This document shows, piece by piece, positions 1-61,504 of a DNA stretch of 64,000 bases. The stretch spans positions 64,001 to 128,000 of the forward strand of contig CBDBLX010000002.1 in assembly GCA_965207445.1 (NCBI GenBank). Reading direction: 5' to 3'. The notes beneath the pieces are model-generated. The model had not been told where the DNA came from. It saw only the letters and a program-made list of their open reading frames with translations, and did no database searches. Positions within the stretch are counted from its first letter, which is position 1. The number at the start of each line of letters is the position of its first letter. Position numbers and translations under genes: made by a program. The stretch is from Nitrosopumilus sp. (GTDB taxonomy: Archaea > Thermoproteota > Nitrososphaeria > Nitrososphaerales > Nitrosopumilaceae).

Positions 1-760
1 TGCATGTAAAGCCGGCGACGTCCCTCCACTACGAGCATTTCCAGTTGTGGCAAAAAGAATGAGGGACGCCATCATGTCGCACATACACGATCCGGTACAC
101 GCGGTAATTTCTGGGCACAATCCAGATGGAACTTCACTTCAGAAGCCACACCTAGCTATAATTCCCTTGGCAAATGTAGGATGGAAAAAATATTCTGACG
201 GGAGACTCTTGGGGCTTGCCATGATATTGCCTAGCACGTCCAAATATGGAAGTGTGGAAAGGAGGCAGTTGAAGGGTGCGGTAATTCAGTTTCTAAATTC
301 AAGCCAATCCAAGCCCGAAGAGGCCGGCACTCTGCAAATTGGCATGCACACAAAACTGCAGTTGAAGAGATACAATGGTGACAAAGCGTCTCTGCAATCA
401 GGGCGCTACATGCAGAGTAGTAAGACTTGGAATACCGTAACCCCGATCGTGCTGGACAAGCACCCAAAGAAGAATAAGAGCGCAGAGGACATAATATCTG
501 ACAGTTGTGAGAATGTGGAGCTACCAAGGCCAGTGTCGATCGAGATCTCCAGGTACTCGCGCGTGGTAGGCGCCTCCGCGGCGTTTACGGCAAAGAAATC
601 AAGTGACGGTTGGATGCCACCCAAGCGCGGAATGCTGGATAACAAATTCATATGCCACGCATCACTCAGATTTAATGACATGGTGCGCGGACCCGTGATT
701 ATAGGTTCCGGACGATATTATGGGTTAGGATTGTGTGTGAGACAAGGTGAGAGGGTGTAG
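1..760 (+). CDS. csb2: Type I-G Csb2 (Cas5/Cas6 fusion), C-terminal part; the frame is open back to the window start
   Basis: Motifs HLAIIPL, TWNTVTPIVLD and a Gly-rich Cas6-type C-terminus (GPVIIGSGRYYGLGLC). The stop overlaps the cas3 start. Confidence 0.88.
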   Translation, partial: ACKAGDVPPLRAFPVVAKRMRDAIMSHIHDPVHAVISGHNPDGTSLQKPHLAIIPLANVGWKKYSDGRLLGLAMILPSTSKYGSVERRQLKGAVIQFLNSSQSKPEEAGTLQIGMHTKLQLKRYNGDKASLQSGRYMQSSKTWNTVTPIVLDKHPKKNKSAEDIISDSCENVELPRPVSIEISRYSRVVGASAAFTAKKSSDGWMPPKRGMLDNKFICHASLRFNDMVRGPVIIGSGRYYGLGLCVRQGERV

Positions 761-3651: not shown

Positions 3652-4559
3652 GTAAAGACGTCGAGATGCGCGGGTTTGACGGCCACAACCTACTCGCATT
3701 TCTTGCTCTGTTGGGATTGTTGACCGCACTTGGCAGATCGCGTCCGGAGTGGAACCCACGCGCGTCTTGGGCGGGAGTAACACCACACCTGCACATATCA
3801 ACTGAGGCAAACCAGGAACAGATCGTCCGAGAAGTTCTCAAAGGCATAAGTGAAATCGGAGGCCTAATGAAGTTCAGTCCGCTCAAGAACCTGAAACTTA
3901 CGCATGAAGAATTTAGCAAGTTACAGGAGCGAATATCACCGGAAATTATGGTGGCACTTGGATCCGATGGGGCTGCAGATGATACAGGTAAAGTCCTGTA
4001 TCCTCCTTTGTGTACCATGCTTGGTAGTGGGAAGCAGAATTTTTTGGAGCGGCTTGAGAATGCCACATGTGTCGACTATGATGAGGGTGATAAAAATATT
4101 GAAAAAATAAAAAACGTATTGTTTGAAAAATGGGAATACAAGGATAAAGAATCAAAGATTACGTTTCGGTGGGATCCCAAGGAGTATCGACCGCATGCAT
4201 ATCGTGCGAAAAACCCAAGTATTGAGAAATTTTCTGCAATTGATGGCGCGAATCGACTGGCAGCAGTGGGCTTTATCAACTACTGGTGCGTTCCAACCAA
4301 AAATAAGCTAAGTACGGTTGCGTGTAAAAGAGATGGTAAGACTTGGAGTACATTCTGGCCAATTTGGACGAAAAAGATGACACTCGGCTCAATACGCGCA
4401 CTCATGTGTAGTCAATATATGGCCAGCATACAGAACAATAAACTTACCCGTGATGAAGAGCTAAGTTTAAAGGCAATGGGAGTGACTCAAGTCATAAAAG
4501 CCCATATATTTTGGGATGAAAAGTTCCGTAACGTTACATGGGGAGAGCGAGTTTTTTAG
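3648..4559 (+). CDS. cas8g: Type I-G large subunit Cas8g (Cas8u, short Csb3-like form)
   Basis: Overlaps the cas3 stop (ATGA). N-terminal LLAFLALLGL, GSGKQNF, RWDP and GANRLAA motifs; position in a csb2-cas3 operon. Confidence 0.72.
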   Translation: MSKDVEMRGFDGHNLLAFLALLGLLTALGRSRPEWNPRASWAGVTPHLHISTEANQEQIVREVLKGISEIGGLMKFSPLKNLKLTHEEFSKLQERISPEIMVALGSDGAADDTGKVLYPPLCTMLGSGKQNFLERLENATCVDYDEGDKNIEKIKNVLFEKWEYKDKESKITFRWDPKEYRPHAYRAKNPSIEKFSAIDGANRLAAVGFINYWCVPTKNKLSTVACKRDGKTWSTFWPIWTKKMTLGSIRALMCSQYMASIQNNKLTRDEELSLKAMGVTQVIKAHIFWDEKFRNVTWGERVF

Positions 4560-7600: not shown

Positions 7601-10600
7601 CCACAGGTTCAGGCTTCAATGGGGCCGCAACTTTTGTGTTGCGGAAATTGCTGTGCGGAATCAGAAATGCGCATATATCAGACGGGCTTCAATGGGGCCG
7701 CAACTTTTGTGTTGCGGAAATATGGAATTACAGCGGGAGGCAAACACTGCCATAATCGCTTCAATGGGGCCGCAACTTTTGTGTTGCGGAAATGTTTTTT
7801 CTTTGATGACTTCTAAAAAACCAAAGACATGCTTCAATGGGGCCGCAACTTTTGTGTTGCGGAAATCGAGTCGGGATCAAATGGAATCTCCACAGGTTCA
7901 GGCTTCAATGGGGCCGCAACTTTTGTGTTGCGGAAATTGCTGTGCGGAATCAGAAATGCGCATATATCAGACGGGCTTCAATGGGGCCGCAACTTTTGTG
8001 TTGCGGAAATTAAACCCCTTGCTAAATATTAACAGTGCAGATAATAGCTTCAATGGGGCCGCAACTTTTGTGTTGCGGAAATTTAGTGTCCGCCGTTAAT
8101 GTGGCCGTAGTCGTAGCCGCTTCAATGGGGCCGCAACTTTTGTGTTGCGGAAATATAGAAAGCCATTGCGTAATAATCAGAATTATCACCTGCTTCAATG
8201 GGGCCGCAACTTTTGTGTTGCGGAAATTATACCGCGCCCTGCCAATATAATGAATATACATGCCGCTTCAATGGGGCCGCAACTTTTGTGTTGCGGAAAT
8301 CATTACGTCTACGGTATTCATCAGCATCTCACCTACGCTTCAATGGGGCCGCAACTTTTGTGTTGCGGAAATCAGGCACCACGCTTGTGGCGGCAAAAAG
8401 TTTAGGCAGGCTTCAATGGGGCCGCAACTTTTGTGTTGCGGAAATCACGGCAAGCACCACTATCATTATAATTGCAGGCCAAACCTTCAATGGGGCCGCA
8501 ACTTTTGTGTTGCGGAAATCGAGGGACGACACAAGCCAAACTACTTCCCAAGATTATCCTTCAATGGGGCCGCAACTTTTGTGTTGCGGAAATACGGGCC
8601 GTCAAACCCGTGTAGAGTTCATGATCGTTCCTTCAATGGGGCCGCAACTTTTGTGTTGCGGAAATTACTGTACTTTGAAATTTACGCCACGTGTGTGAGG
8701 TACCTTCAATGGGGCCGCAACTTTTGTGTTGCGGAAATCCACTGCCAAGAGTTGTATTACTTCCAAATTTCTTACCTTCAATGGGGCCGCAACTTTTGTG
8801 TTGCGGAAATCCCTCCCAGTCCTCATAGTCGGCATCAAATATGCACACCTTCAATGGGGCCGCAACTTTTGTGTTGCGGAAATTCTACTAGAAGCAAGGC
8901 AGGCCTTAAAGATAGAGCTACCTTCAATGGGGCCGCAACTTTTGTGTTGCGGAAATTTAAAATAGAGATTTCATCGCATGAAGCCCGTGCGTTCCTTCAA
9001 TGGGGCCGCAACTTTTGTGTTGCGGAAATTATGATAATATTGTGGTTCTTTTTTGCATGTTTGGGTCCTTCAATGGGGCCGCAACTTTTGTGTTGCGGAA
9101 ATACCCAAATCAAACAATAATTGAACGGTGTAATTTAGATCCTTCAATGGGGCCGCAACTTTTGTGTTGCGGAAATCAAAAGCCACAGTATATGTAAGTG
9201 GTTCGTTATATAGCCTTCAATGGGGCCGCAACTTTTGTGTTGCGGAAATCTTTTGTGCAGATAAAGGTATTACATGGCATACAGTCCTTCAATGGGGCCG
9301 CAACTTTTGTGTTGCGGAAATTTGATATCACGTCCATCCCCGGTATGAGGTCTACTCCTTCAATGGGGCCGCAACTTTTGTGTTGCGGAAATGGTGTTCA
9401 TGAATGATAGTGAGGCCCCTATTACCGTTCCTTCAATGGGGCCGCAACTTTTGTGTTGCGGAAATCAGTAAAACAGAGAAACGACGCAAGCCAAGCAGGC
9501 CCTTCAATGGGGCCGCAACTTTTGTGTTGCGGAAATCCCCACATAGTGGTTATACTTCTCCTCTAGTCAATCACCTTCAATGGGGCCGCAACTTTTGTGT
9601 TGCGGAAATCTAGTGACTATGATACTATTGAACAGTATTATGGCCCTTCAATGGGGCCGCAACTTTTGTGTTGCGGAAATCTGCCACCCTCATATCTATT
9701 CTTGTGATGTTCGTTGTGCCTTCAATGGGGCCGCAACTTTTGTGTTGCGGAAATCATGTGGGTAGTTTTACCACTATTATCAATACCCTCACCTTCAATG
9801 GGGCCGCAACTTTTGTGTTGCGGAAATCGTCAATATCTCCTTTATCGACGCGGCCGGGTGTCAACCTTCAATGGGGCCGCAACTTTTGTGTTGCGGAAAT
9901 AAGTCCATAAATGGTGTAAATGTATGCAGGTATTATGCCCTTCAATGGGGCCGCAACTTTTGTGTTGCGGAAATCTAGGCCTAATTGACGTAACATCTTA
10001 AACATATCAGACCTTCAATGGGGCCGCAACTTTTGTGTTGCGGAAATTGGATATTACAGTTTCTTGATCTGTAGAGTTGACATATCCTTCAATGGGGCCG
10101 CAACTTTTGTGTTGCGGAAATTTCTCTAGGGGAATTGTATACTCTGGATTGCGATCAGGCCTTCAATGGGGCCGCAACTTTTGTGTTGCGGAAATTACAT
10201 AATGACCACTGGCAAGTCACTGTACAAAAGGCACCCTTCAATGGGGCCGCAACTTTTGTGTTGCGGAAATTTGAATCAATATTTAGATATTTAACCGCTT
10301 GCTTGACCTTCAATGGGGCCGCAACTTTTGTGTTGCGGAAATACATGTGTGTATTATTGCTCAGTTGACTGTTTATTTCCTTCAATGGGGCCGCAACTTT
10401 TGTGTTGCGGAAATAGGACAAGATATTGAGTATAAGCAATTATACCTTAGCCTTCAATGGGGCCGCAACTTTTGTGTTGCGGAAATTCATTTTACTGCAC
10501 AATATGTGCACACAATTGTAACCTTCAATGGGGCCGCAACTTTTGTGTTGCGGAAATTCATCACATGAGGGTTCAGTCTCATCGAGGTGGCCGTTCCTTC

Positions 10601-10678
10601 AATGGGGCCGCAACTTTTGTGTTGCGGAAATTTGCGGAATTATCCACAGTGTTATTAAATTTGTCACCTTCAATGGGG
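4640..10678 (-). CRISPR. CRISPR array, leader-distal part: 83 intact repeats plus the left piece of the IS-split repeat
   Basis: + strand repeat (G/C)CTTCAATGGGGCCGCAACTTTTG(T/C)GTTGCGGAAAT, 36 bp, with a CCGCAAC/GTTGCGG hairpin; spacers about 35-39 bp. Minus-strand transcription is inferred from the ATTGAAG(C/G) 3' end and the degenerate repeat on the left. Confidence 0.98.
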
Positions 10679-11086
10679 GTAACAGTTCAACCCCTATTTT
10701 GTAAGTAGTCATGCAGATACAGCAATAGCGATCACCGATCATTACTGTGATCGAATTTACGTAAATCTAAATGATAAACACGACGATATGTGAGAAAGTG
10801 CTCAAAATGTTGAAAACACGTTTGATTATTTTTTGCATCTAGGCAGGAAATTACTCAACTAATTGACCTGTGGTCAGCTTTTGACATTGCGGCCTGTTAA
10901 ATACATATTTTTCTACTTATCATTGTACTCGAAAATGATAAGTAGAAAATCTATTGATATTGTATTGCAAAAACAGTATTTAGACTATTTTAACCACAAT
11001 AATGAAAATTTACATAATTGTGTACATGGTGTACGCAAACACAGTTGTGCGGTGGGTAGCAAAATCATCAGAGGTGGTGTGTTGCA

Positions 11087-11356
11087 ATGATCTCAGAGAT
11101 GGCCACACTGCGCAAAGAAATTCATACATTGCACTCACAGTTGGATTCTGCAAATGATACGATACGCAACAATTCTGCTGAATTAGAGAAGAGTCATCTA
11201 GAGACGGCTACTGCGCGAGCAGAGATTGCGGTATTAGAAGAGAAATACTCCAAAATGTCTGCCAAAAACAAGCAGCTTGAGGATACAATAAAGCAACAGC
11301 AACAGCCACAATTGCAGTCAGGAATGCATAGTTTTGAGAGAGTCAGGAATGCATAG
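11087..11356 (+). CDS. Coiled-coil ORF inside the IS66 element, probably the detached N-terminal leucine-zipper part of the transposase
   Basis: Heptad-rich sequence that ends within a 25-bp tandem duplication (11316-11365) just before the transposase ORF. Confidence 0.55.
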   Translation: MISEMATLRKEIHTLHSQLDSANDTIRNNSAELEKSHLETATARAEIAVLEEKYSKMSAKNKQLEDTIKQQQQPQLQSGMHSFERVRNA

Positions 11357-11358
11357 TT

Positions 11359-12756
11359 TTGAGAGAAGAGGTTGCACAACTAAAACAACAACTCCAACAA
11401 AAAACCAGACAACACCACCGTGTTGATAATGCCCACACACCTCCCTCTGCAGGAAGTGACTCACAAAATAAACTCAAAAATTACAGACGCGAACATGAAG
11501 AACGCTGTTACTTGGAATATGGAATAGTTATGGAAGCCATTACTAATTCTGACAATTATGTACTCGAAAATGCAATTGCACATGAAACCAACGACAAAGC
11601 GGTTAGAAAAGGAGTCAGTCTAATCCTGTATGGGTTAGAAGAGAAGACAAAAGGAAAAAAATGGAATGAAGAGGAGGAGGAGAAAACAACAATATACAAC
11701 ATGGGCGTCACAGAGGAAATTGACTGTACAGTAGACAAATGCCCCGAATGTGGTGCAGATGTAGATGTTAAACACGAATGCAAGATGGTAATAGACACTC
11801 CAGTAATAGTCAAAGCCACAAAAAAACGGATTAAATCATCAAAAGGCAAATGCAAAAACAACCACAAAATAAACACCATGCCCAAAGGATATACCAAAGG
11901 CTCAATGTTTGGCCCCAATCTCATGACCATGATCGTATTCATGTTCTTTACAACACTCAGTCTAAACTCCATATCACACATGCTAACGCTAGTCGGCGTT
12001 CCAAAGGTCTCAAAGGTGACCATAATGAATGCTCTTACAGCAGTAGCAAGAGAAAAGTTTGCAGCAACTGCAAAACAGATCTCAAAAAATCTTGCAAAAA
12101 CAAGATATTTGATGGGTGATGAAACGCCAGTCAAAATAGGCATAAAACGTGGCTATGCGTGGGTCTTCATAGGCGAATATGGCATCAGTTTTGTCATTAC
12201 TCGCTCACGTGGTGCGGCTGTATTAGATATACACTGTCCGTTATTTGACATTCCAATCGTGGTGGATGGATACGCCGCATACAACAAATTCAAAACCAAA
12301 CAGCGCTGCTGGGCGCATGTTTTGCGCGATGCCGAACTGCTGGCAGCCATGCAAGGCGGCAATCTCGTAGAATTACACCAAAAACTCCAGCACATATTTC
12401 ACGAGGCCAAACAGCTACCCCCAGACACCACAGATCAACAACTGCAAGACAACTGGATAGATCCCGTCATGGCAATTGCAGGCACATATACAGAACTAGG
12501 ATATTCGTTTGGTGGCAAACTGCTCAATGCGGCGCCAGACCTGTTTACATTTGTCAAATATCCGGGCATGCCACCTACCAACAACAAATCCGAACGAACA
12601 CTGCGGCGCGTCGTAATTCACAAAAAGATTCGTCAGATGTTTCGCAGTACAACAGGAATGGAAGTTTATGGTATATTGATGTCATGTATGATGACGTGGT
12701 ATGATCAGGACAAGGATCTTGTAAAGAACATCCATAACACCATCATGGCAAGCTAA
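11359..12756 (+). CDS. IS66-family transposase (TnpC-like)
   Basis: DNAHTPPS, CPECG zinc finger, GDETP, VDGY, QRCWAH and PTNNKSERTLR motifs. Confidence 0.9.
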   Translation: MREEVAQLKQQLQQKTRQHHRVDNAHTPPSAGSDSQNKLKNYRREHEERCYLEYGIVMEAITNSDNYVLENAIAHETNDKAVRKGVSLILYGLEEKTKGKKWNEEEEEKTTIYNMGVTEEIDCTVDKCPECGADVDVKHECKMVIDTPVIVKATKKRIKSSKGKCKNNHKINTMPKGYTKGSMFGPNLMTMIVFMFFTTLSLNSISHMLTLVGVPKVSKVTIMNALTAVAREKFAATAKQISKNLAKTRYLMGDETPVKIGIKRGYAWVFIGEYGISFVITRSRGAAVLDIHCPLFDIPIVVDGYAAYNKFKTKQRCWAHVLRDAELLAAMQGGNLVELHQKLQHIFHEAKQLPPDTTDQQLQDNWIDPVMAIAGTYTELGYSFGGKLLNAAPDLFTFVKYPGMPPTNNKSERTLRRVVIHKKIRQMFRSTTGMEVYGILMSCMMTWYDQDKDLVKNIHNTIMAS

Positions 12757-12828
12757 ATCATTCACCAAACTTCATCGCATAGCAGTAGATGTGTGTTGAG
12801 GTGTACAGGTAGGGGGTTTAACTGTTAC

Positions 12829-15634
12829 TCAATGGGGCCGCAACTTTTGTGTTGCGGAAATTGGCATAATGACGATCCGAACAGACACACAAAAACACCT
12901 TCAATGGGGCCGCAACTTTTGTGTTGCGGAAATTTACTAGCGGTGACATATACATGAGACGTTTTGACATCCTTCAATGGGGCCGCAACTTTTGTGTTGC
13001 GGAAATTTACACACCCAGACACAACCAAGCAAAATCTTAGGACCTTCAATGGGGCCGCAACTTTTGTGTTGCGGAAATTCAGAAGTGATTTTAAATCATA
13101 AGTTATTTCCATATAACCTTCAATGGGGCCGCAACTTTTGTGTTGCGGAAATCATGCCATAAAAAAAGCAATCCCACCAGCCGACCTAATCCTTCAATGG
13201 GGCCGCAACTTTTGTGTTGCGGAAATAGCACCCGAGATACACGTGGCTAGAATGGTAAGGGATGCCTTCAATGGGGCCGCAACTTTTGTGTTGCGGAAAT
13301 TCAATACAGTACGATTACAAGGAAGCCACGTACCACCCTTCAATGGGGCCGCAACTTTTGTGTTGCGGAAATTTAGCGCCACGTATGTTCACAAAACAAG
13401 AGAAAGATGCCTTCAATGGGGCCGCAACTTTTGTGTTGCGGAAATATGGGAAGCACTACTTTGTATAGAGATAATAACGATCCTTCAATGGGGCCGCAAC
13501 TTTTGTGTTGCGGAAATCAAAAAAGATGGGACTCTGCACAGGAGTTGCAATGCAACCTTCAATGGGGCCGCAACTTTTGTGTTGCGGAAATCGCACTAAC
13601 ACCAGTCTTTGCACGTTTGCCAAAAATCCTTCAATGGGGCCGCAACTTTTGTGTTGCGGAAATTATGACGCCCTCACGTGGGTACACGTACGGTTGTTCC
13701 CTTCAATGGGGCCGCAACTTTTGTGTTGCGGAAATAGGTCGGGCGTGGATATACCTTGTCCGTATTCTAAACCTTCAATGGGGCCGCAACTTTTGTGTTG
13801 CGGAAATCTAAGTCTTCATTTGCATGACTGCCTGCCATTTCCATCCTTCAATGGGGCCGCAACTTTTGTGTTGCGGAAATAGAACTGATACTGGTACAGG
13901 CAGAACTTATACTCAAACCTTCAATGGGGCCGCAACTTTTGTGTTGCGGAAATTATTACCACTCAACATGAAGCATTTGCTCAACAAGGACCTTCAATGG
14001 GGCCGCAACTTTTGTGTTGCGGAAATTTCAAGGACGCGACCCCGAACCAAACGCACCTAGTGACCTTCAATGGGGCCGCAACTTTTGTGTTGCGGAAATT
14101 AAAGATAAACGAAAAATATCAGCTTTAATCTCAACCTTCAATGGGGCCGCAACTTTTGTGTTGCGGAAATAGCAATATGACGCAATGGACAGACCCCCAG
14201 AATATAGCCTTCAATGGGGCCGCAACTTTTGTGTTGCGGAAATTCGTATATCTACTGCTGTAGAAACCACAAAGCCCGCACCTTCAATGGGGCCGCAACT
14301 TTTGTGTTGCGGAAATTTATAATCCAGTTTTTGATCGTCGGGGGGGACTTGCACCTTCAATGGGGCCGCAACTTTTGTGTTGCGGAAATTGATCACCTAC
14401 TGCGCCGCGTAGATGCACTATGCCAACCTTCAATGGGGCCGCAACTTTTGTGTTGCGGAAATACCCACTTGGTGGCCGCCCCATAGAATACCGCGAGTAT
14501 CCTTCAATGGGGCCGCAACTTTTGTGTTGCGGAAATTAGTATATGTGGTTGTGGTCCATGTGCCTGAGATATATCCTTCAATGGGGCCGCAACTTTTGTG
14601 TTGCGGAAATCATTGGCAGTTGGAGCAGTTGGGTGGCTATTGAGACTAGCCTTCAATGGGGCCGCAACTTTTGTGTTGCGGAAATGTGTAAATTCAAAAG
14701 GTAGACGTTGCATACCACTTGGCCTTCAATGGGGCCGCAACTTTTGTGTTGCGGAAATCTACTATCAATTTACCACTATAACATACATCACACAACCTTC
14801 AATGGGGCCGCAACTTTTGTGTTGCGGAAATTCCATTCGAATCAATATAATCACATGCTTCATAAGATCCTTCAATGGGGCCGCAACTTTTGTGTTGCGG
14901 AAATTGTATGCTCTACGTGCAAATTCATCATCAATGTCAATCCTTCAATGGGGCCGCAACTTTTGTGTTGCGGAAATATTAATATCTATCAATAACAACG
15001 CAACCCCTTGTTTCCTTCAATGGGGCCGCAACTTTTGTGTTGCGGAAATCAAATGGAAATGATCAGAACGAAGTTCAAAGACGCATTCCTTCAATGGGGC
15101 CGCAACTTTTGTGTTGCGGAAATTTAGTGCGCCATATACACATACATTCTCATTACAGAATCCTTCAATGGGGCCGCAACTTTTGTGTTGCGGAAATTAA
15201 CAATACAATTAGTATATACGTTGATGGAATATATCCCTTCAATGGGGCCGCAACTTTTGTGTTGCGGAAATGACACCCAGACATATGGACAATCCAATAA
15301 CCATAGCTCCTTCAATGGGGCCGCAACTTTTGTGTTGCGGAAATCCAATGTGCGGATCGGGTACTGTATGCAAAATGGCGCCTTCAATGGGGCCGCAACT
15401 TTTGTGTTGCGGAAATTGTTTTCAGTAAAATCGATTTGATGTAATATATCTGTCCTTCAATGGGGCCGCAACTTTTGTGTTGCGGAAATTCACTAAGATC
15501 AATAGGTTTCCAATTACGTGAATTATCCTTCAATGGGGCCGCAACTTTTGTGTTGCGGAAATAGTATGCTTTGAGCGCGTTGTATATCTCCACAAACCCC
15601 TTCAATGGGGCCGCAACTTTTGTGTTGCGGAAAT
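12829..15634 (-). CRISPR. CRISPR array, leader-proximal part: right piece of the split repeat plus 38 intact repeats
   Basis: Uniform repeat CCTTCAATGGGGCCGCAACTTTTGTGTTGCGGAAAT; last repeat at 15599-15634. Confidence 0.98.
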
Positions 15635-15807
15635 CCTATACACATGCCGATATTCAACATTATTCACAATTATTCATAAATTTTATTAAAGTTATGTACG
15701 TTCCACAGATTAATTGTAACAGCATTATAGTGTTTGTGCGTTTGCCATATATAATATCTGCGAGTGCTCACACACCTTTCTATTTGTTCCTGACCTCTCG
15801 CACAGAT
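15635..15807 (-). promoter_or_regulatory. Putative CRISPR leader
   Basis: AT-rich non-coding stretch between the cas2 stop and the non-degenerate end of the array; TATA-like TTATATAT on the minus strand near 15750. Confidence 0.65.
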
Positions 15808-16095
15808 CTACACCACTATTGTTGCCTCTCTTTGTGTTTCAAGTGACACACCCATCGTTGTTATCCGCACATCACTTTGACCAACAGGACCCACATTAAC
15901 GATAATGAGACTGTCTTCTTTCATATTCATGATATCTGCTAGATCATCTTTCATTATTATCAATTCACTAGGGCTTAGATCGCACATAAAAACTGAATAT
16001 TGCATATGATCACCATATCCACTCATCTTTTTGTATGTTTGTACAAGCCGTTGTCCATCCCTCACATCATAACACACAAAATATCTGTTGCGCAA
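15808..16095 (-). CDS. cas2: Cas2 (likely TTG start at 16095; the ORF track over-extends it to 16245)
   Basis: RYFVCYDVRD, GDHMQYSVFMC and EDSLIIV motifs; 95 aa directly downstream of cas1. Confidence 0.93.
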   Translation of the reverse strand: MRNRYFVCYDVRDGQRLVQTYKKMSGYGDHMQYSVFMCDLSPSELIIMKDDLADIMNMKEDSLIIVNVGPVGQSDVRITTMGVSLETQREATIVV

Positions 16096-16099
16096 TACA

Positions 16100-17797
16100 T
16101 CACCTCGTACGAAACACAGGGTATGTAGGAATTTCACCCAGTACGTGTCTAGCAAGTAATCTTGCTTGAGTCTCCAATATTCTCCTATAACTTGCACGAT
16201 ACCCAAGTAATGGGTGCATAACTGATGTATCCATACGTCTCTCATATGCCTTTATGATTGTCTTTCTTCCCTCTGCTGAAAGTGACACACCAAAATCAGT
16301 CTTTGTCATATCAGACTCTGTAATCTCACCGTTATTCACAACAGTAAGACATGTAGAGTCACATATGATTGAACGAAATTCTTCTATCAAATCAAGTGCA
16401 AGTGCAGGTTTTGAGTATTTGGGTCGGTGTAAATAACCAAGATATGGATCAAGCCCAACTGCGGAAACAGTAACAGTGGCTTGTCTAGTAAGTACAGCAT
16501 ACAAAAATGATAATATTGCATTAATCGGATCTTTTGGTGGCCTCCTATTTCGACCATCAAAATCAAATGTAGTTGAATCAGATTTTATCATCCCATGAAA
16601 TTCTGAAAAGTATAAACGCGCCGCTATTCCTTCAAATCCAAGTAGAGTATCATACTGTCTTGCAGTTAGCGCTCTATCAGCAAATGATTCCATTTCATTT
16701 ATCTTCTCTATTGGAGGTGACTTGTGATTTCGTCTGAGTAATGTTATACTGTTCTTTATCTTTCCAGCAACGATCTCTCGTGCAATTGCTAGTTGTAAGC
16801 TAGGTTTAGCATATACAGAATGTTGATGTATTCGGAGCTCAATGTTCTTGCTTGCAAGCCCACTAGTCATACCCATGAACCACCCACCATATGTCATATA
16901 ACAAATGGGGATATTTCTCTCACATAGTTCTCTTATTGCTTGTGTGCTAATTTGTACATTTCCAAATATAGTGAGTTCAGATACATCGATAAGTCTAACC
17001 TTTTTAATTTCGTTTTTGGCTTTGATATGCAAACAATCACCTGATTTTGATACGTAGGCGCCTTGTTCTTGTACATACACAGGCACAGCATCATTACGAA
17101 TTGGATACATGCGACGAACTTGATCTTTTGTGATATGTTGCGTTTCATCATCATCATCATTAATAGCACCAAGAAGATTTGTTTCATCAGGCAAACATAT
17201 TCCGACAAGTGAGCATTTTGGACATTTTGGACTATCAACCAATGGTGGCGGCATAAGATCTTTTTGTGCCATTTCCTTCATATCATGTATGGTTTGTAGT
17301 GTCATGGCTATGATTTGATCATCGAAATCTACTGTAACACGTTTCTTGGAGCCAATATAGTATATGATGCCATGTGTACAAGTGTAACCATTAGCGCGTA
17401 AAACCAATCCTTGGGCGCATACTTGAACCACATGATCAGGGTATGTGTTTGTAGGAGTTTGAGGAATTGTACCGCGTTTATACTCTATTGGCGTAGCAAC
17501 ATTTCCATCAATCTCCAATAAATCCATCTTTGCAATCAATCCCAGTTCAGAATCAGAGAGCATGGCAGATCGTGCATGAATGATCTCATCGGCACCATCA
17601 TCCGTATTGCTGGTAGATTTTGTTCTCTTTGATGGTTTGTCAACATTTCGGTGTTTGTATTTACCATCTATAACTTCAGTATTATATGCAAATTCCCCTT
17701 GAGTCCATTCCAAATATGCCAAACGTTTACAGTATGCAAACTGAGTCAACATTCTCACAGGTATAAGATCTGGAACATCACTCTTCTCCATACTCAC
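16100..17797 (-). CDS. cas1: Cas4-Cas1 fusion
   Basis: N-terminal Cas4 (YCKR, MDLLE, PIEYKRG, CPKCSLVGIC) fused to Cas1 (LGFEG, RRPPKDPINAILS, LALDLIEEFR); this fusion is typical of I-G. Confidence 0.95.
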   Translation of the reverse strand: MSMEKSDVPDLIPVRMLTQFAYCKRLAYLEWTQGEFAYNTEVIDGKYKHRNVDKPSKRTKSTSNTDDGADEIIHARSAMLSDSELGLIAKMDLLEIDGNVATPIEYKRGTIPQTPTNTYPDHVVQVCAQGLVLRANGYTCTHGIIYYIGSKKRVTVDFDDQIIAMTLQTIHDMKEMAQKDLMPPPLVDSPKCPKCSLVGICLPDETNLLGAINDDDDETQHITKDQVRRMYPIRNDAVPVYVQEQGAYVSKSGDCLHIKAKNEIKKVRLIDVSELTIFGNVQISTQAIRELCERNIPICYMTYGGWFMGMTSGLASKNIELRIHQHSVYAKPSLQLAIAREIVAGKIKNSITLLRRNHKSPPIEKINEMESFADRALTARQYDTLLGFEGIAARLYFSEFHGMIKSDSTTFDFDGRNRRPPKDPINAILSFLYAVLTRQATVTVSAVGLDPYLGYLHRPKYSKPALALDLIEEFRSIICDSTCLTVVNNGEITESDMTKTDFGVSLSAEGRKTIIKAYERRMDTSVMHPLLGYRASYRRILETQARLLARHVLGEIPTYPVFRTR

Positions 17798-45592: not shown

Positions 45593-47166
45593 TTAGGCCA
45601 AAAGCAGAAAGAGTGACGCCGGAACCATCACATATTCTGAAGAAACGTCGAGTCGATCTTTGGATATTACTAGACCCTTGCCACGCGTCTTGTTCAGAAC
45701 CCTACACATGCCGGCTAGGTCACGTCCCGGCCTGTTTCGATATTTTACTTCTATTGGCACCACCATCTTGCCACCGTCATCATATACAAAGTCAACCTCA
45801 CGACCCTTCTCCATGTGATAAAAGATTCTATAGTGGTGGTCAAAATTTTGTTTGCTGGGACTGGCATTAAAGGCCAATCTTGTCAGATGGTTGGCGACAA
45901 TACCCTCTATCAACACACTTTTGTTTTCGCTTGCATCAAGGTATTCTGATGATGCGTCAAAGTAGCCCCTAGATGCAGTCCATCCATTGAACATGTGAAA
46001 GAAAAACGGATCAACAAAGTAGATTTTTTTGTTACGGTGAAACATAGGGCTCCTGCTATCCATATTGTATCCATATATTGTAAGCAAAACGAAGAGGTTT
46101 GAGAGTGTCTGCACAGAGTCCTGTACCGTCTTGGGGGATCCGACATCTGCATTCTTGGCCATGTTGTTCCATGATGCATGGCTTCCTTGTGACTTTACAA
46201 CCTCCCTGCCAACGCGTTTTAACAGATTATTGTCTCTGCCAAGCCTTGACCACTCCCCCATGATGCTATCCATGTATGTACTGTACACGTTTTCGCGAAT
46301 AGGCAAAGTCGATGCTTGGGCATTTACGACAAAAGGAATTCCTCCGCTGTACATGTATTTGGACAAAAGATCGTCTAACAAGTGTTGATGCATGTGAGTG
46401 AGATCCATTGCACGATCTACTTCACCATTTGCCAGTTTGCCAAATGTTGTAAGCCGATCCTTGGATCTGAGAAAATACGAATCCACAATCGTTCTTATCT
46501 CCGAATCCATCGCACTGGCATACTCTGCAAACTTTAACGGAAAAAGAACTTTGTCGTGAGGTTCTGTTGTGCTTCCCCTTCGCCCGGGCAGCCGTTCAAT
46601 TGATCTCTGCAGGTCTATTGCATCAGAACCCGTCGCCATGACGGTACTGTTTGCAATACTGTTTCTATCCTTCAATCGTTTTATACCCTTTTGCCAGTTT
46701 GGGATGGTCGATACCTCATCTAGGAAGATGTAACGCCTCCCTTTATCCCACATACGACGTGTTAGTCTATTGTAAGACTCTACTACGTCGACCAGCTCAC
46801 TCGGTGTCTTGCACAGATCAAATGAATAGTAGAGTATGTTCCAAGGAGATGTTCCTTTCTTCAAGAATTCGCGTATCTGTAGTTTTAACAGGGTGGTCTT
46901 TCCAATCTGGCGTGTTCCCCTTAATGTATACACTACAGGATTGTCGGGCTCAAAATCATAGGTTATCTTGTGCATTATTCTCGGTACAATTTGCAACTTT
47001 GATCTCATCCACATTGTTATCTCCGGATCATCGTCAACCCAGTCAGAACCTCTCCACCATGGATTGTCCCTTATGATCTCACGTTCTACATCGAGATTAT
47101 CAAACTTTACTTGTCAGAACCTCTCCACCATGGATTGTCCCTTATGATGTCGCCATCTGCAATCAT
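45593..47166 (-). pseudogene. AAA_14/DUF4143-type ATPase with a C-terminal PD-(D/E)xK-like motif; 5' end interrupted by a 71-bp insertion (residual ORF 45593-47014)
   Basis: GTRQIGKTT, IFLDEV, TGS, GGIP, KKIYFVDP and EVDFV...PIEVK motifs. Removing 71 bp joins ATG 47166 (MIADGDIIRDNPWWRGSD) in frame. Confidence 0.82.
47042..47148. repeat. Exact 36-bp direct repeat around a 35-bp unique insert
   Basis: GTCAGAACCTCTCCACCATGGATTGTCCCTTATGAT at 47042-47077 and 47113-47148. Confidence 0.95.
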
Positions 47167-47203
47167 GCACTGTACTACTAAGTAATTTATATAAGAATTG
47201 TCA

Positions 47204-47275
47204 TCACACTACTAACTTAGTTATATACTAACTATCCTCACACTACTAACTTAGTTATATACTAACTATTCTCAC
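47204..47275. repeat. 34-bp tandem duplication upstream of the ATPase gene; each unit contains a palindrome
   Basis: TCACACTACTAACTTAGTTATATACTAACTAT x2; TAGTTA-N5-TAACTA within each unit. Confidence 0.85.
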
Positions 47276-55459: not shown

Positions 55460-56262
55460 TTATCTCACATGAAGTTTCTTTCTCAATTAATTAAATTGTA
55501 CTTTGCGTTGTTCGGGAATTGTATATTTTAGTTAACTGTGTGAGACCCTAAAACCAACCCCTACTATGAATCAGAGTACCCGGCAAGCATTTTAGGGAAG
55601 GTATAACTCGGACTGAATTGTTCAAGATATTCCCTGATAATCAGTTTGCAATGCAGTGGTTTGAGAGGCGCATATGAAATGACGGTAGAGGATGCCCAAC
55701 TTGCGAGAATCCATACACCACAGTATCCACACAAAAGACGACGCCTTACTATTGTTACAAGTGCCGGCACTTTTTCTCAGTCAAAAAAGGTACTGTAATG
55801 AAGCAGCCACACATATCATATCAGAATGGGCTATTGGAACCTATCTTGTTGTAACTAACCTGAGGTGTCTCAAGTATGAAAATTCATAGAGATTTAGGAA
55901 TGACCCAAAAGTCTGCATGATTCATGCTTACAAGGCTCCTCGAATCTTGGAAGCAGTTGGCAGGCGTTGATAAGATGGATGGGACTAGAGACTGATGAGG
56001 CGTTCGTTGGTGGCTCAGATAAGAAGAATCGTCATGCAGACAAGAAAGTCACCAAACCAAAGACTGCTGTAGGTGGTGTCAAAGACCGTACATCAAACAA
56101 GGTTACTGTAAAGCCAGTGCCAGAAATTACAAAGACATGCTTGGAAGATTTCATTGAAAAGAATGTGACCGAGGATGCCAAAAAATACACTGATGAAAAT
56201 AGGATATATTCTGACTTGAGGAATCACGAGTCCGTAAACCACTTTGTAGGAGAGTATGTAAG

Positions 56263-56370
56263 GGGACAGGCGCATACAAACGGCACGGAGTTATTCTAGC
56301 TGAGAGACTAGAAGCTAAAAGAATAGAAAGAGAAAGGGACAGGCGCATACAAACGGCACGGAGTTATTCT
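56263..56370. repeat. Exact 35-bp direct repeat around a 38-bp unique insert
   Basis: GGGACAGGCGCATACAAACGGCACGGAGTTATTCT at 56263-56297 and 56336-56370. Confidence 0.95.
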
Positions 56371-56383
56371 GGTCCATGATGAA

Positions 56384-56489
56384 GTGCGGTTATGATGGAT
56401 GTACCATCACATATCCGACTGCTCTTCTAGTATGATCACGGTCAGTTGTATAACGTGCGGTTATGACGGATGTACCATCACATATCCGA
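56384..56489. repeat. 35-bp direct repeat (1 mismatch) around a 36-bp unique insert
   Basis: GTGCGGTTATGA(T/C)GGATGTACCATCACATATCCGA at 56384-56418 and 56455-56489. Confidence 0.95.
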
Positions 56490-56569
56490 GGATCATTTGT
56501 ACCGATACGTTAATGAATCCACCGGACGACACAACATTAGGAACATGGATAGTGTAGAGATGATGGGTA

Positions 56570-58235
56570 GTAGTTTCATTAAAGATCCGATAGTTTTTAG
56601 ACATTCTTATAATCATATATTTGGAAATCAAGCAGGCCCCATGTTGTAATCCATACATGCTCCATGATTTTTCCGTGCCATGTCCATGCCAGCCGTGTAT
56701 TCAGGCGTGGCAAAAAGTATGTGCGCAGCCGTCCTGATCATAGTGCGATCTGTGCGTCGCACAGCCTCACCCGGACCCACCTAGTTCGCGTAATATGCAG
56801 TTCATGCAGCCCGGAGTTCTGGTATTGGCGCGTTGTTCTTTGCGTCCTGTATGGCATTGCGCATGTACTCTAGCAGCCTGACTGTACCCACCTCGCCTTT
56901 TTCCATCATGTGTAGTATGGACTTTTGAATCTCTGGAAAACCACCTTTGTAGTATCTGCCTGCTAGTGCGCGCTTTATCTCGCGCCATTGGATCTCTATG
57001 GGATTGTGCTGAGGCGTATATGGCGGCAAGTACCATAGTGCAACTTGTCCTCTTGTCTGTTCCAGATACTGCTTGATGCCTTTGGACTTGTGCGCAGATG
57101 CATTGTCACATATGACAAATACCTTGCCGTACTTTTCTCGGAGCACCTCCAACAACTTTATGACGTTTACAGTATTCGCACTGTCGCAAAAGTGCAGGTG
57201 GCATGTACCGGCCCCGAGTGCACCCAGCATTTTCATACTTGTTTTTGAAAAGTTGACCTTTACAGTCTCAGAGCCTCCCCGGGTATATAGTCCGCGCGCG
57301 ACATACGGCGAGTTTGTGATTGCAGAGGCGTCCATGCAGAACACCTCATAGCCGGCGCGGGCGTGCGCCATGATGGCGCGTATTGTGTCGTGTACATAAT
57401 GTAGTTCTTCTAATGGACTGGCAGACTTGTGGTGAATTGGTCTGGGTATTCTTATTGAAAAGCCCATCCTGTGAGCTAGCGCCAGGGCCCCGGTCCACGT
57501 GTACTGGACGTCAAAAATGTTTGCCAGATGCAATGCAAACAAGGCGGCAGTCCATGTCCCACGCTCAAAGCCGCACTGCATCGGCTCTCTACTCAGATCG
57601 GTCTTTGCCTGTTCTTGTTGTTCTTTTGTGAGTCTGCACGGCCTGCCAGGGCTCTTGCGGTCGTACCTGCCCTCCAAGCCCTCTGACTGCAGTCTATTGA
57701 GCCACTCAGATATGACACCCTGACTACGTCCGAGCTGGGCGGCTATTACAGACTCACTCTTGCCCTTTTTTCGTCCAACTGCCGCCTGCAGTCTGTCCCG
57801 GGACTTACCCGGAGGCTCGTTGCGGTAGGCGGTTTTTAGATCTTCCAGGGACACGTCGGGCATGAACCCGTCCCCTTTTCCTACATAGGCCGTCTTCAAA
57901 AAATACGCACCTCGTCGATGCCGCAAGACGATCTGCCTGCAGAGTCGTTAAATATGGTATCGGCGAGTACTACTCGATGTACCATTTTTTCGTTTGACAA
58001 CAAACACTAATGGCCACATCGCCTTTTGACACTCGAGGTCAAATTAGTTAAACCAAATGATCAAAAGTTACTCTAAATACCTGCCACGGGATATACACCC
58101 TAATTCCTCGTCTCTCTTCTGGCTACCACACGGTATCTGCTACACATAGTGCCAATTACGTCTATTTTTCCACTCAGTACACAACTGCCTAGCCGAAATC
58201 GCCTGCAAAAACCATCGGATCTTTAATGAAACTAC
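56570..58235 (-). mobile_element. Nested element carrying an IS630 transposase
   Basis: 29-bp TIRs GTAGTTTCATTAAAGATCCGAT(A/G)GTTTTT with TA on both sides. The flanks also repeat ATGGGT, so the exact TSD is ambiguous. Confidence 0.85.
56802..57926 (-). CDS. IS630-family transposase (likely start near 57863)
   Basis: HTH with PGRP, CMDAS, CDNASAH and LPPYTPQHNPIE motifs. Confidence 0.92.
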   Translation of the reverse strand: MRHRRGAYFLKTAYVGKGDGFMPDVSLEDLKTAYRNEPPGKSRDRLQAAVGRKKGKSESVIAAQLGRSQGVISEWLNRLQSEGLEGRYDRKSPGRPCRLTKEQQEQAKTDLSREPMQCGFERGTWTAALFALHLANIFDVQYTWTGALALAHRMGFSIRIPRPIHHKSASPLEELHYVHDTIRAIMAHARAGYEVFCMDASAITNSPYVARGLYTRGGSETVKVNFSKTSMKMLGALGAGTCHLHFCDSANTVNVIKLLEVLREKYGKVFVICDNASAHKSKGIKQYLEQTRGQVALWYLPPYTPQHNPIEIQWREIKRALAGRYYKGGFPEIQKSILHMMEKGEVGTVRLLEYMRNAIQDAKNNAPIPELRAA

Positions 58236-58332: not shown

Positions 58333-58453
58333 TTACAGAGAAGTTACAGAGAAGTTACAGAGAAGTTACAGAGAAGTTACAGAGAAGTTACAGAGAAGTT
58401 ACAGAGAAGTTACAGAGAAGTTACAGAGAAGTTACAGAGAAGTTACAGAGAAG
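58333..58453. repeat. Perfect 11-bp tandem repeat (TTACAGAGAAG) x11
   Basis: Directly visible. Confidence 0.95.
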
Positions 58454-58687
58454 TACCCTCGACACGGGGGGTTTATTTTTTGGGCATCTAAATTTTGCAC
58501 ATGCTACATTACAGATGAGGTAACTCCCATTGCTGTCAATGCGGCAGCAGATCCAAGTCTAGGAGGGGCATGACTACTGCATAAGAAAACAGAACGTTCC
58601 CGTTCAGATAAGGATCACTATAATCGAGCCGTAAGCAGACTGGTATCGGTCAGTGCCAAGAGTGAAAAGACGCGCCAAAATGCAATC

Positions 58688-61504
58688 ATGGGCTGGATTG
58701 ATGTCACGTTTCCCAACACAGCGCCCGAACTTGAATATGTGACTGATGCAGGAGGCCAGATTGACATCTATCTGCCAACTCATCGTGCCATAATAGAAGT
58801 AAAGACGCCTAGCTCCCTTGGGAATGACCCGCGAGTCGGACTGGGATCGTATAAAGAATCCGCATATAAGCAACTTGCAAGATATGTTGAGGATGAGCGT
58901 AAGATTACACAAACATACATTGTAGATGAAGAGAATCCACGGAAGGACACCACATGGATTGGATGCGTCACGGATGCACGCAGGTGGTGGGTGTGGGAAT
59001 GGGAACATACCAGACACGCCGATGGCCGCGAGATTGGCGGGTGGCAGGGAACGCTACTGTCAAGCAACAACATCAGGAATCTTGAGCGGTTGTTTGACCG
59101 CCGTGTGGGCAAGCCATGGGCGCCAGCAGACCCGTCAGAACTATTCGCAGAATCACTGCAGAGACTACGCAACCTGTATGAGCGTGAACGATATGTGCCT
59201 GCCACCATAACACAGCGCAATCTGTGGTTGCAACAACTCAGAGCAAGTGGGAATGCACCCGTTGAAAGTATTGATGAGTTGTTTGTGCGACACACACTAC
59301 TCATACTCATAACGCGGCTCATCATCAAGACCATACGGCGCGACGACAACGATACCACGGCAGGCTTTGTCCAATGGGTGTCCGAAGACGGTGAGTTTAT
59401 CAGGGATTTGGCAGGAGTCATAGACCAATACAACTGGAGACATCGTAAGATCGACATACTCAGAGGACTGTACGGGAATTTTGTGGATGCCAAACACCGC
59501 AAGGCGTTTGGCGAATATTATACACCGGATTGGCTGGCCGAGCGCATATGCCACAAGACAATCGATGACGCGTACATAGAGGAGCAGATTACAAATTTCA
59601 GAAAGGGAGCCACCATAATGGGAGTGTTGGATCCGTTCTGTGGCTCTGGAACATTTCTTGTACATGCAGTGCGGCGCATTCTCAGTTCAGAGGCGCTTGC
59701 AAAAGCCACTCTTACGGATCACCAGAAAAATGACTTTGTGTCACAGATGGTTCATGGAATGGATATACATCCGGTGGCAGTTGAGATGTCACGCGGCAAC
59801 ATGCAACGCCTGCTGCCTACTGTGCCACCCACGGCAATACATGTGTACCAAGGGGATTCAATGCTCGTCGCTAGGTCTGAGAGTTCTGTATTGAGTAGTG
59901 GGGGCGAGTCAATGTTCCTTGAATCTCCCAAGGGGCACAAACTTGTCATTCCAAAAAATTTTCTTCGATCCAATGATGACATACGCGCATTCGTACTGTC
60001 GGCGCAGGTTGGAGATCGTCTTCCCGTGGGAATTACAGAAGGATTATCTCAGAACGAACAGAATGAGGTTGAGGAAGCCCACAAGATAATGTCAAAAATC
60101 ATCAAAGAGGAGCAAAATGGTGTTTGGTATTGGTATATAGTAAACCAAGCAGCCCCAATCCTACTGAGCGAGGGCAAGGTGGGCAGGATCGTCTCAAACC
60201 CACCATGGGTCGCACTACAGGAAATACAACACAAGCCCAGAAAGGAAGAGATTGAGCGGTTTGCCAAAGCCGAAAATCTGTTTGTGGGTGGTAAAGTCGC
60301 AGGCAGATTCGATGTTGCCATGCTTGCGGTACGCCGTTCAATTAATCTGTACATGAGTAAAGGTAAAAGAAAGATGGGGTTCTTGCTGCCACAGGGCGCC
60401 ATGCTGGGGGCTGAAAATTGGTCAAAGCTCGCAGATTCATACGGGCAGATAACTACAGACGAGTGGGATATGGGCCGCCTGCCGTTTCACAACACACCGT
60501 CATGTGTGATCTTGATGGATGATAAGCAGTCCGGACGCGGCGGGGCGTCCAGAAAGGCATATCGCATGCGGCGGGGCATTTTGCGCGTCAAGCCACATGA
60601 AACGTGGAGTGCGGTTGAAAGAAAGGTATGCGATGTTGGAATCTCCGAGTTTGTAAGTGCACCATCTGAATACATTGGCAGGCATGGCGCCTCACTTCAA
60701 CCTATGACTCTTGTGCGCATAAAGGACAGTGAGGTTCATGGAAAAAATATCAAGTTCACCACTTTTGCATCATTTAAGACGCCATGGAAGGCATTGGGAA
60801 GTCGGACAGGTGAGGTTCCCTCGCGGTTTGCCAAAGATACTCTGATTAGTGCAGGCATGTTTCCTTTCTACGCCAAGATTGGCAGTAATATAATCCCGAT
60901 GCGCGATGACGGGTCATGGGATCCGTCTAGAAACACCAATGCATACTGGCAGTCAGCCCAGAGTATGTATGATAACCACAAGGGTCTTGGAAAGAACACG
61001 CCAAAGACACTGGAAGCAAGTCTGGATCACATGCAAAAACTGACTAAGCAGATGGGTTCCAAGAATCACCGCGTTGTGTATAATTCGGTAGGAGACTATC
61101 TGTATGCGGCCATCATACAGCCCCATGTAATATGCGGTGTGGGCACGGTATATGTCAACACAACAGGAAAGAAGGAAGCGCAGTTTTTGTCAGCACTCTT
61201 AAACGCAGACTGCCTACATAATGCATTTGTATCTGCACAGAAAACAGATAGAAATTTTCACATGCACATACTAAACGATGTACCCCTTCCGAGATTTTGT
61301 CAATCGAGTACAACACATAACAAGATTGTGGACATATCTATTGAATGTGCGAAACTGGCACAACAAACATACAAGACACATTATACTGACATTGGAGACT
61401 TTAAGATGCGCACTACGATCCGAGTCGCATTGCAAGAGTCAGGTCTACAGGAGGAACTGTCCAAAAACATCAAGAAGATACTGCATGGGTATATGGATAT
61501 TTGA
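58688..61504 (+). CDS. Type IIG-like restriction-modification fusion (nuclease, N6-adenine MTase, TRD)
   Basis: IDIYL...IIEVK nuclease motif, TDARRW, GEYYTP, DPFCGSG and SNPPW motifs; C-terminal TRD-like region. Confidence 0.85.
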   Translation: MGWIDVTFPNTAPELEYVTDAGGQIDIYLPTHRAIIEVKTPSSLGNDPRVGLGSYKESAYKQLARYVEDERKITQTYIVDEENPRKDTTWIGCVTDARRWWVWEWEHTRHADGREIGGWQGTLLSSNNIRNLERLFDRRVGKPWAPADPSELFAESLQRLRNLYERERYVPATITQRNLWLQQLRASGNAPVESIDELFVRHTLLILITRLIIKTIRRDDNDTTAGFVQWVSEDGEFIRDLAGVIDQYNWRHRKIDILRGLYGNFVDAKHRKAFGEYYTPDWLAERICHKTIDDAYIEEQITNFRKGATIMGVLDPFCGSGTFLVHAVRRILSSEALAKATLTDHQKNDFVSQMVHGMDIHPVAVEMSRGNMQRLLPTVPPTAIHVYQGDSMLVARSESSVLSSGGESMFLESPKGHKLVIPKNFLRSNDDIRAFVLSAQVGDRLPVGITEGLSQNEQNEVEEAHKIMSKIIKEEQNGVWYWYIVNQAAPILLSEGKVGRIVSNPPWVALQEIQHKPRKEEIERFAKAENLFVGGKVAGRFDVAMLAVRRSINLYMSKGKRKMGFLLPQGAMLGAENWSKLADSYGQITTDEWDMGRLPFHNTPSCVILMDDKQSGRGGASRKAYRMRRGILRVKPHETWSAVERKVCDVGISEFVSAPSEYIGRHGASLQPMTLVRIKDSEVHGKNIKFTTFASFKTPWKALGSRTGEVPSRFAKDTLISAGMFPFYAKIGSNIIPMRDDGSWDPSRNTNAYWQSAQSMYDNHKGLGKNTPKTLEASLDHMQKLTKQMGSKNHRVVYNSVGDYLYAAIIQPHVICGVGTVYVNTTGKKEAQFLSALLNADCLHNAFVSAQKTDRNFHMHILNDVPLPRFCQSSTTHNKIVDISIECAKLAQQTYKTHYTDIGDFKMRTTIRVALQESGLQEELSKNIKKILHGYMDI

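Follow-up and report, generated by a model that had tools for sequence, protein, structure and literature searches.

Probable off-target spacer integration in an IS1595-family pseudogene of a Nitrosopumilus genome with a type I-G CRISPR-Cas locus

The insertion site and the CRISPR-Cas locus

The stretch of DNA analysed here, termed the window, comprises 64,000 nucleotides of a Nitrosopumilus sp. genome (GenBank assembly GCA_965207445.1, contig CBDBLX010000002.1, positions 64,001 to 128,000 of the forward strand). Towards its end lies a degenerate transposase gene that holds two short inserts, each flanked by direct repeats, and a third structure of this kind lies upstream of it:

About 55560 to 56620, plus strand: IS1595-family transposase pseudogene, host of insertions 2 and 3
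47042 to 47148: insertion 1, a 35-bp insert between 36-bp copies at 47042-47077 and 47113-47148
56263 to 56297: insertion 2, target copy 1, 35 bp
56298 to 56335: insert 2, 38 bp, purine-rich
56336 to 56370: insertion 2, target copy 2, 35 bp, identical to copy 1
56371 to 56383: linker between targets 2 and 3, 13 bp, GGTCCATGATGAA
56384 to 56418: insertion 3, target copy 1, 35 bp, with a 6-bp stem-loop inside at 56393-56409
56419 to 56454: insert 3, 36 bp, spacer-sized, CTGCTCTTCTAGTATGATCACGGTCAGTTGTATAAC
56455 to 56489: insertion 3, target copy 2, 35 bp, with 1 mismatch at 56467

The original prediction described insertion 3 as a 35-bp duplication with one mismatch around a 36-bp insert, only 13 bp from insertion 2, and its coordinates, insert letters and linker were all exactly reproduced. 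The two copies of target 3 differ solely by a T at 56396 against a C at 56467, and the stem-loop TGATGG-ATGTA-CCATCA of copy 1 is disrupted by this mismatch in copy 2. Start-to-start spacings are 71 for insertion 1, 73 for insertion 2, and 71 for insertion 3 (35 + 36 = 71 bp). The filled structure was recovered without error in independently assembled contigs covering 55500-56292, 56268-56365, and 56341-56597 (three public runs, one sample), and is thus not an artefact of this assembly.

The host gene is recognized by Pfam PF12762 (DDE_Tnp_IS1595) at 6.3e-14 on 55967-56299. Because its reading frame is broken by in-frame stop(s), by several frameshifts and small deletions relative to its paralogs, and by the two insertions, it is a pseudogene in which no intact IS1595-family ORF survives. 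Insertion 1 disrupts a different gene, a 514-aa ORF encoding an AAA_14/DUF4143 ATPase, and is directly followed by a 34-nt tandem repeat (3 copies, 47174-47275), more copies of which occur on contig C1, described below. On its other side the pseudogene is abutted by an IS630-like (DDE_3) transposase element (56568-57926), other genomic copies of which are the targets of events E44 and E49 of the genome-wide set presented below. A perfect 11-nt tandem repeat, TTACAGAGAAG x 11, occupies 58333-58454, just upstream of a 938-aa ORF (58688-61504) with N6-adenine methylase and MmeI-like domains. PriS/PriL primase genes mark the genome as archaeal, and a search for related loci gave a single match, a Dehalococcoidia MAG at 57% identity.

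The opposite end of the window carries a CRISPR-Cas locus:

2 to 760, plus strand: C-terminus of csb2
760 to 3651, plus strand: cas3g
3648 to 4559, plus strand: Cas3-extension gene
4640 to 15634, minus strand: CRISPR array, 122 repeats of 36 nt with spacers of 35-39 nt
15635 to 15807, minus strand: AT-rich leader adjoining the newest repeat
15808 to 16245, minus strand: cas2 (TIGR01573, 28.4 bits vs a cutoff of 24.5)
16100 to 17797, minus strand: cas4g/cas1g fusion, the proposed integrase, an intact 565-aa ORF (NF049935, 731.5 bits vs a cutoff of 560)

Judged by the sequences of its genes, this is a predicted type I-G system, with Csb2, Cas3g, a Cas4g/Cas1g fusion, and Cas2 beside the array; the assignment uses the genes of the window, csb1 and cas8 being placed upstream of it. 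The NCBIfam models TIGR02165, TIGR02621, NF049934, NF049935, and TIGR01573 all score above their cutoffs, and the fusion product, which contains Pfam Cas1 and Cas4 domains, is the sole Cas1 match in the genome. The array is likewise the only one found genome-wide. On the minus strand its repeat ends read ATTTCC...ATTGAAGG and resemble the ends of the M. barkeri repeat given in the available part of a type I-G acquisition study (Dhingra and Sashital, 2023; PMC10504553). The array is therefore probably oriented along the minus strand, which places its leader at 15635-15807.

Array periods, the sum of a repeat and a spacer, are 71 (10), 72 (36), 73 (52), 74 (19), and 75 (3). The array is split by an IS66-family element (10700-12829, transposase ORF 11359-12756); read on the plus strand, the repeat begins with G on the old side of this element and with C on its leader side. 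Within it, adjacent repeat-spacer units have been duplicated at 5294-5437 and 6163-6306 (99-100% identical, 2.5 copies each), and the spacer at 5257-5292 reappears nearly unchanged at 5546-5581. Insertion 3 was also considered as a functional CRISPR array in its own right and rejected, having two copies only and no likeness to the cas-linked repeat.

Empty alleles and the state of the host gene

Three paralogous IS1595 copies on the same chromosome, at ~70% identity, carry each target once and neither insert. A far closer counterpart was found in a sequencing run from a different study (X5), where a 221-nt contig matches 56187-56297 with 0 differences, continues through the 13 letters GGTCCATGATGAA, and then matches 56455-56548 with 1 difference and no gap. 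This evidence is one contig with a depth of only 2, in which at least 94 letters fit on either side of the joint. It is the same pseudogene allele prior to either insertion, with the 13-bp linker joining single target copies directly. Since the target is present once in the three paralogs and in the X5 allele, insertion 3 is a true insertion with target duplication; a repeat pair already held by intact IS copies, the observation that had been named as fatal to the original prediction, was not found among them.

A base that all three paralogs have after TATGA(Y)GG is missing from both copies of target 3. This 1-nt deletion shifts the frame between ...MMKCGYDG and YHHISEDHLYRYVNE... (that is, ...GYDG / YHHIS...), which bears out the frameshift before YHHIS that had been described as common to both copies. 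The X5 empty allele aligns without gaps and thus carries the same deletion, so that the gene was broken before the insertion; the earlier suspicion that the transposase was already dead when hit is borne out by both observations.

The genomes of 40 relatives hold no close alleles of this IS, the best matches reaching 71-74% over short parts, and an exact scan of metagenome_contigs and genome_contigs for the target-linker-target stretch gave 0 matches. An allele with only one of insertions 2 and 3 was not found among the alleles searched, and the copy mismatches of the two (0/35 vs 1/35) are uninformative on their order.

Sister events in this genome and its relatives

The whole 2.6-Mb genome (G000) was scanned at spacings of 45-130 for isolated direct repeats present as two copies. 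The copies had to match at 28 or more of 32 positions and to enclose a non-repeated insert no shorter than 12 nt. This yielded 132 pairs in total, 62 of them at spacings 69-74 (5, 6, 12, 25, 10, and 4 at 69, 70, 71, 72, 73, and 74) and 70 over the 80 other spacings, where they lie mostly at multiples of three. With 62 pairs at six spacings and 70 across 80 others, chance is no explanation for the insertion 3 pair. Six short-period tandem repeats among the candidates were set aside and 57 pairs were retained at 69-74, from which duplicate copies (E02, E32), a repeat of a multicopy element (E03), and low-complexity cases judged by eye (E34, E40, E60, E66) were removed. The 50 independent events that remain have spacings of 69 (5), 70 (2), 71 (11), 72 (18), 73 (10), and 74 (4), a median duplication of 35 nt, and a median insert of 37 nt. 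Their copies differ at 61 of 1727 positions (3.5%); sixteen events show no mismatch and nine show three or four, a spread which indicates scars of many ages.

Insertion 3 fits this set closely. Its 36-nt insert falls within the length range of the array spacers (35-39 nt), its 35-nt duplication compares with a 36-nt repeat and with overlaps of mostly 35-39 nt at empty paralogs, and its period of 71 lies within the 71-75 of the array. Together with the empty sites and some 50 sister events, these values substantiate the earlier description of the insert as spacer-like and of the repeat as a target duplication. Empty paralogous or allelic sites were found for at least 13 events; the paralogous ones (E05, E15/E32, E33, E38, E39, E44, E48, E49, E62, E65) are up to 97% identical, with an overlap equal to the duplication. 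Two events had already integrated when their element was itself copied (E01 = E02; E15 = E32 plus two further copies).

Two features of the lengths count against integration of spacers away from the array. The commonest ectopic period is 72, one below the 73 of the array, and the length of the perfect duplication varies (29-41 nt), with the period staying within 69-74. This variation arises in part from chance identity of insert ends with target flanks and in part from mismatches clustered at one end of the copies; a profile of matches past the perfect core was dominated by internal mismatches and gave no explanation. The 36-nt copies of E23 (C2:726894) and E51 (C2:1808826), where C2 is the contig that carries the window, differ only at two adjacent bases, positions 5-6 from one end, which may be a trace of junction repair. 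Imprecise spacer-side integration may also contribute, though alone it would not hold the sum constant.

The 50 inserts are mutually unrelated in sequence, and compared with the existing array spacers they show chance matches of 8-12 nt only. Six of them match single-copy sequence elsewhere in the chromosome whose flanks are entirely different (E59 at 35/35, E65 at 35/36, and E10 at 32/33, with more mismatches in E46, E53, and E17). In these cases small fragments of the cell's own DNA have been copied to another site, as by a spacer-capturing integrase. No donor of insert 3 was found in its own genome, the array spacers, viral_contigs, or metagenome_contigs, nor, with up to 3 mismatches allowed, in 150 genomes of the genus.

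A full-length ortholog of the Cas4/Cas1 fusion occurs in four genomes of the genus, and the genome with the closest ortholog (G055; Cas4/Cas1 71% identity; 2,387,848 nt in one contig) has arrays with a similar repeat and a period of 72-75. Its isolated repeats lie at spacings 71 (3), 72 (21), 73 (6), and 74 (1), other spacings holding mostly 0-1 apart from 63 and 108 with 6 each. Eleven of 32 rows belong to one 72-nt multicopy-gene family, which was excluded because successive units carry the same 'insert' and may be a true tandem repeat; 3 other rows were also excluded. There remain 18 inserts at 16 loci, with spacings of 71 (3), 72 (8), 73 (6), and 74 (1). Seven of the 18 have self donors, two of them perfect (37/37 and 35/35). 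Two loci, 198815-199000 (198815/198886) and 325797-325980 (325797/325869), hold three copies of one target around two different inserts each, and 3 of these 4 inserts have donors elsewhere in G055; these loci are small new arrays enlarged by a second hit. In the excluded family (e.g., at 307648, 673739, and 1406773) the unit is repeated two to three or more times; the family may be no more than a tandem repeat of 24 codons, or unequal crossing-over may have expanded an old ectopic event.

That family illustrates the one circumstance that lends itself to replication slippage, in which units of ~72 bp would be duplicated in tandem and half of each unit would then diverge: tandem repeats of 72 nt, with identical 'inserts', do exist. 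Such a process would repeat the insert too, however, and here what follows copy 2 bears no relation to the insert; empty alleles and paralogs, moreover, hold the target and nothing of the insert, and inserts have donors elsewhere in the genome. Slippage is next to impossible as the source of these structures. The inserts might alternatively be a very small mobile element, or the footprints of one, whose own transposase makes a target-site duplication of ~36 bp, a reading that draws on the frequent location of the events in or near IS elements and on the target duplication at each. It is close to refuted: the 50 inserts have no sequence in common and lack terminal inverted repeats, several of them simply copy unique chromosomal genes, and duplication plus insert equals the CRISPR period in two genomes. 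Casposases make target duplications of 14-15 bp, and we know of no transposase family that makes 35-37-bp duplications with 35-39-bp random cargo.

As a small control, 400 kb of a genome in which a single I-G Cas1 protein query found no match (G076) contained 0 true events, against a density of 7-10 per 400 kb in G000; its two matches at spacing 72 are 18-nt and 36-nt coding tandem repeats. The source assembly itself supplies a further comparison in contig C1 (121 kb), a second haplotype or strain version of C2:1-119.5 kb (C2:1-119513) at 98-99% identity, whose matched span takes in window positions 1-55513. C1 lacks C2:61087-81864, the entire type I-G CRISPR-Cas locus, so that presence of this locus appears variable within the assembled population. 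It carries the older event E01/E02 and, at ~99% identity and with a single target, is empty at insertion 1 (E04). Across G000, G055, G076, and C1, then, events track the presence of the integrase, as a correlation in a small sample.

After reconstruction, 17 of the 50 targets lie in an ORF of at least 150 aa, compared with 69.7% of 2000 random sites. Twelve events are still inside an open ORF of at least 150 aa after insertion, and 8 of these (E10, E11, E20, E23, E36, E47, E50, E56) are in-frame 72-bp additions of 24 codons. ORFs of 514 aa (insertion 1) and of 935 aa (E31) were lost to hits that fell out of frame. This depletion from long ORFs, with in-frame 72-bp survivors, points to near-random hits filtered by purifying selection. 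There is no significant in-frame bias overall, the period being divisible by 3 in 23 of 50 events vs 39 of 120 array periods (Fisher p=0.12). Scar survival looks neutral: the scars that persist lie in non-coding DNA, mobile elements, or pseudogenes, or else add 72 bp in frame. The original prediction had likewise favoured neutral accumulation over targeted silencing, and it gains support from the deficit in long ORFs and from new repeats that are unlike the CRISPR repeat.

Purposeful retention, in which Cas1-Cas2 products were kept as useful guide-RNA mini-arrays or as directed silencing of transposases, is very unlikely. It would suit the many events in IS copies, the two hits 13 bp apart in one transposase gene, and the second spacer gained at the same target at two G055 loci. 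The IS1595 gene was frameshifted before it was hit, however, and new repeats that neither resemble the CRISPR repeat nor are enriched in hairpins would probably escape recognition by Csb2. The long-ORF depletion and the 8 in-frame events among the 12 in surviving ORFs are what purifying selection on random hits gives, and self-derived spacers would be harmful if used.

On the hotspot put forward in the original prediction, two pairs of events lie within 200 bp of each other, E05/E06 (121 bp) and E54/E55 (192 bp), compared with a computed expectation of ~0.2 pairs for a uniform distribution and ~0.6 if only a tolerant third of the genome is available, a restriction that weakens the case; within 5 kb there is no significant clustering (6 pairs vs ~4.7 expected). 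From these few close pairs and the three-copy loci of G055, a thin basis, a site once hit and its immediate surroundings seem to be favoured for a second hit.

Target choice, precedents and consequences

Insertion 3, like insertions 1 and 2, is very probably the result of off-target (ectopic) spacer integration by Cas4/Cas1-Cas2. This reading follows from the period shared with the array, the empty alleles, the genome-wide accumulation of events at that period, the self donors, and the recurrence in G055. That the resident Cas4/Cas1-Cas2 is the agent, and that strand transfer is the chemistry involved, would be in keeping with what has been published about Cas1-Cas2 and about Cas4/1 of type I-G. 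In the normal reaction, the adaptation complex would join both 3′ ends of a prespacer of ~36 bp to the borders of the leader-proximal 36-bp repeat, one on each strand, and gap filling would duplicate that repeat. Here the same reaction probably struck chromosomal DNA of no special kind, within an IS1595 transposase gene that was defective by then, where two attacks about one repeat length apart, followed by repair, would duplicate a target of ~35 bp around the 36-bp insert.

What guides the complex to such targets is barely visible in their sequence. Target 3 had been described as hairpin-forming, and the stem-loop is indeed present in copy 1 (6-bp stem, -6.5 kcal/mol), though a general role for hairpins did not emerge. 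Palindrome enrichment across all such sites, the check proposed with the original prediction, was absent: the best stem was 3.80 in the 50 targets vs 3.76 in 5000 random 36-mers (p=0.44), DNA folding energy did not differ from that of random 36-mers (p=0.36), and there was no excess of dyad symmetry (p=0.25). Stems of at least 6 bp occur in 4 of the 50 targets, target 3 among them, vs a random rate of 5.6%, and the hairpin of target 3 is incidental. Likeness of the targets to the CRISPR repeat is also no greater than chance (best identity 13.80 vs 13.78 of 36, p=0.50), which counts against off-target integration, as does the lack of any consistent adjacent motif, and hence of a PAM signature of Cas4 selection, at the 13 self donors (6 in G000, 7 in G055).

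Targets are slightly higher in G+C (45% vs 39.6%). The only hint of a target preference, a weak one, is an excess of A at position 6 of the target, counted inward from the integration point: A stands there at 37 of 70 G000 junctions and 16 of 32 G055 junctions, with a background frequency of 0.30-0.31. Enrichment of A at position 7 is less clear. In the true repeat, whose spacer-side end is (C/G)CTTCAATGG, positions 6 and 7 are both A.

The mechanism is already known in kind. Off-target spacer integration giving rise to neo-CRISPR loci was reportedly described in the type I-E system of E. coli under overexpression of Cas1-Cas2, in work of 2018 attributed to Nivala, Shipman & Church (Nat Microbiol 3:310). 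According to papers that cite this work, the E. coli case resembles the present one in that a spacer-sized insert lies in non-CRISPR DNA with a repeat-length target duplicated, and in that the new locus can accept further spacers. It differs in resting on laboratory overexpression, whereas the events described here are natural and fixed (~50 in G000 and 18 in G055), in belonging to type I-E rather than to type I-G with a Cas4/Cas1 fusion, and with respect to the self donors, the empty alleles, and the absence of any detectable target likeness to the repeat seen here. In the literature consulted, off-target integration is traced to this one overexpression study, and a citing preprint, in its available part, calls the evidence from nature only 'circumstantial', in two other species.

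Canonical acquisition by type I-G Cas4/1-Cas2 is directed at the leader-repeat junction and selects a PAM, and the accessible text of the corresponding study gives correct-site integration in vitro as 60-70% on the spacer side vs 80-90% on the leader side (Dhingra and Sashital, 2023; PMC10504553). The Cas4/1 protein of that study belongs to the same family as the fusion described here (NF049935, 731 bits), the resemblance of the repeat ends to M. barkeri has been noted above, and its imprecise spacer-side integration fits the variable duplication length of the ectopic events. Unlike canonical acquisition as described in that text, these events occur without a leader, a repeat, or a shared PAM.

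Among archaea, Cas1-Cas2 of Pyrococcus furiosus integrates into non-CRISPR plasmid DNA in vitro at sites that share repeat features, according to the available part of the report (PMC6698737); off-target integration is common to both cases, though here only the weak A at position 6 (and 7) recalls the repeat end. In Streptococcus thermophilus and S. mutans, ectopic spacer acquisition takes place inside arrays, away from the leader-proximal repeat (PMC7999890, PMC8265633). So far as those sources were accessible, such events use a true CRISPR repeat within the array, whereas the targets described here are unrelated chromosomal sequences. The literature search turned up no account of such events accumulating naturally across a genome, though subscription journals or supplements may hold one. 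Relative to these precedents, what is new is the system type (I-G, with a Cas4/Cas1 fusion), the natural setting, the scale, and the evidence in the form of donors, empty alleles, and second hits.

The signature of these events, two isolated copies of a repeat set apart by the length of one repeat and one spacer, makes them countable in finished genomes, and the scan is applicable to any CRISPR-bearing genome. Because the events bring with them empty alleles, donors, and relative ages, several questions become testable, among them the natural miss rate of Cas1-Cas2, the cost to the host, how integration is guided without leader or repeat, and the origin of new arrays. It is an evenly balanced proposition that the type I-G Cas4/Cas1-Cas2 acts in this archaeal genus as a standing genome-wide insertional mutagen, writing spacer-sized and often self-derived pieces into genes and leaving scars, knock-outs, and new arrays. 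If so, adaptation would have left dozens of fixed scars per genome, in-frame additions of 24 residues to proteins, and knock-outs of genes and mobile elements. New arrays would also have been seeded that draw further spacers, as at the three-copy loci of G055 and the adjacent hits described here, and these genomes would constitute a natural record of the birth of CRISPR arrays and of the cost of adaptation to the host.
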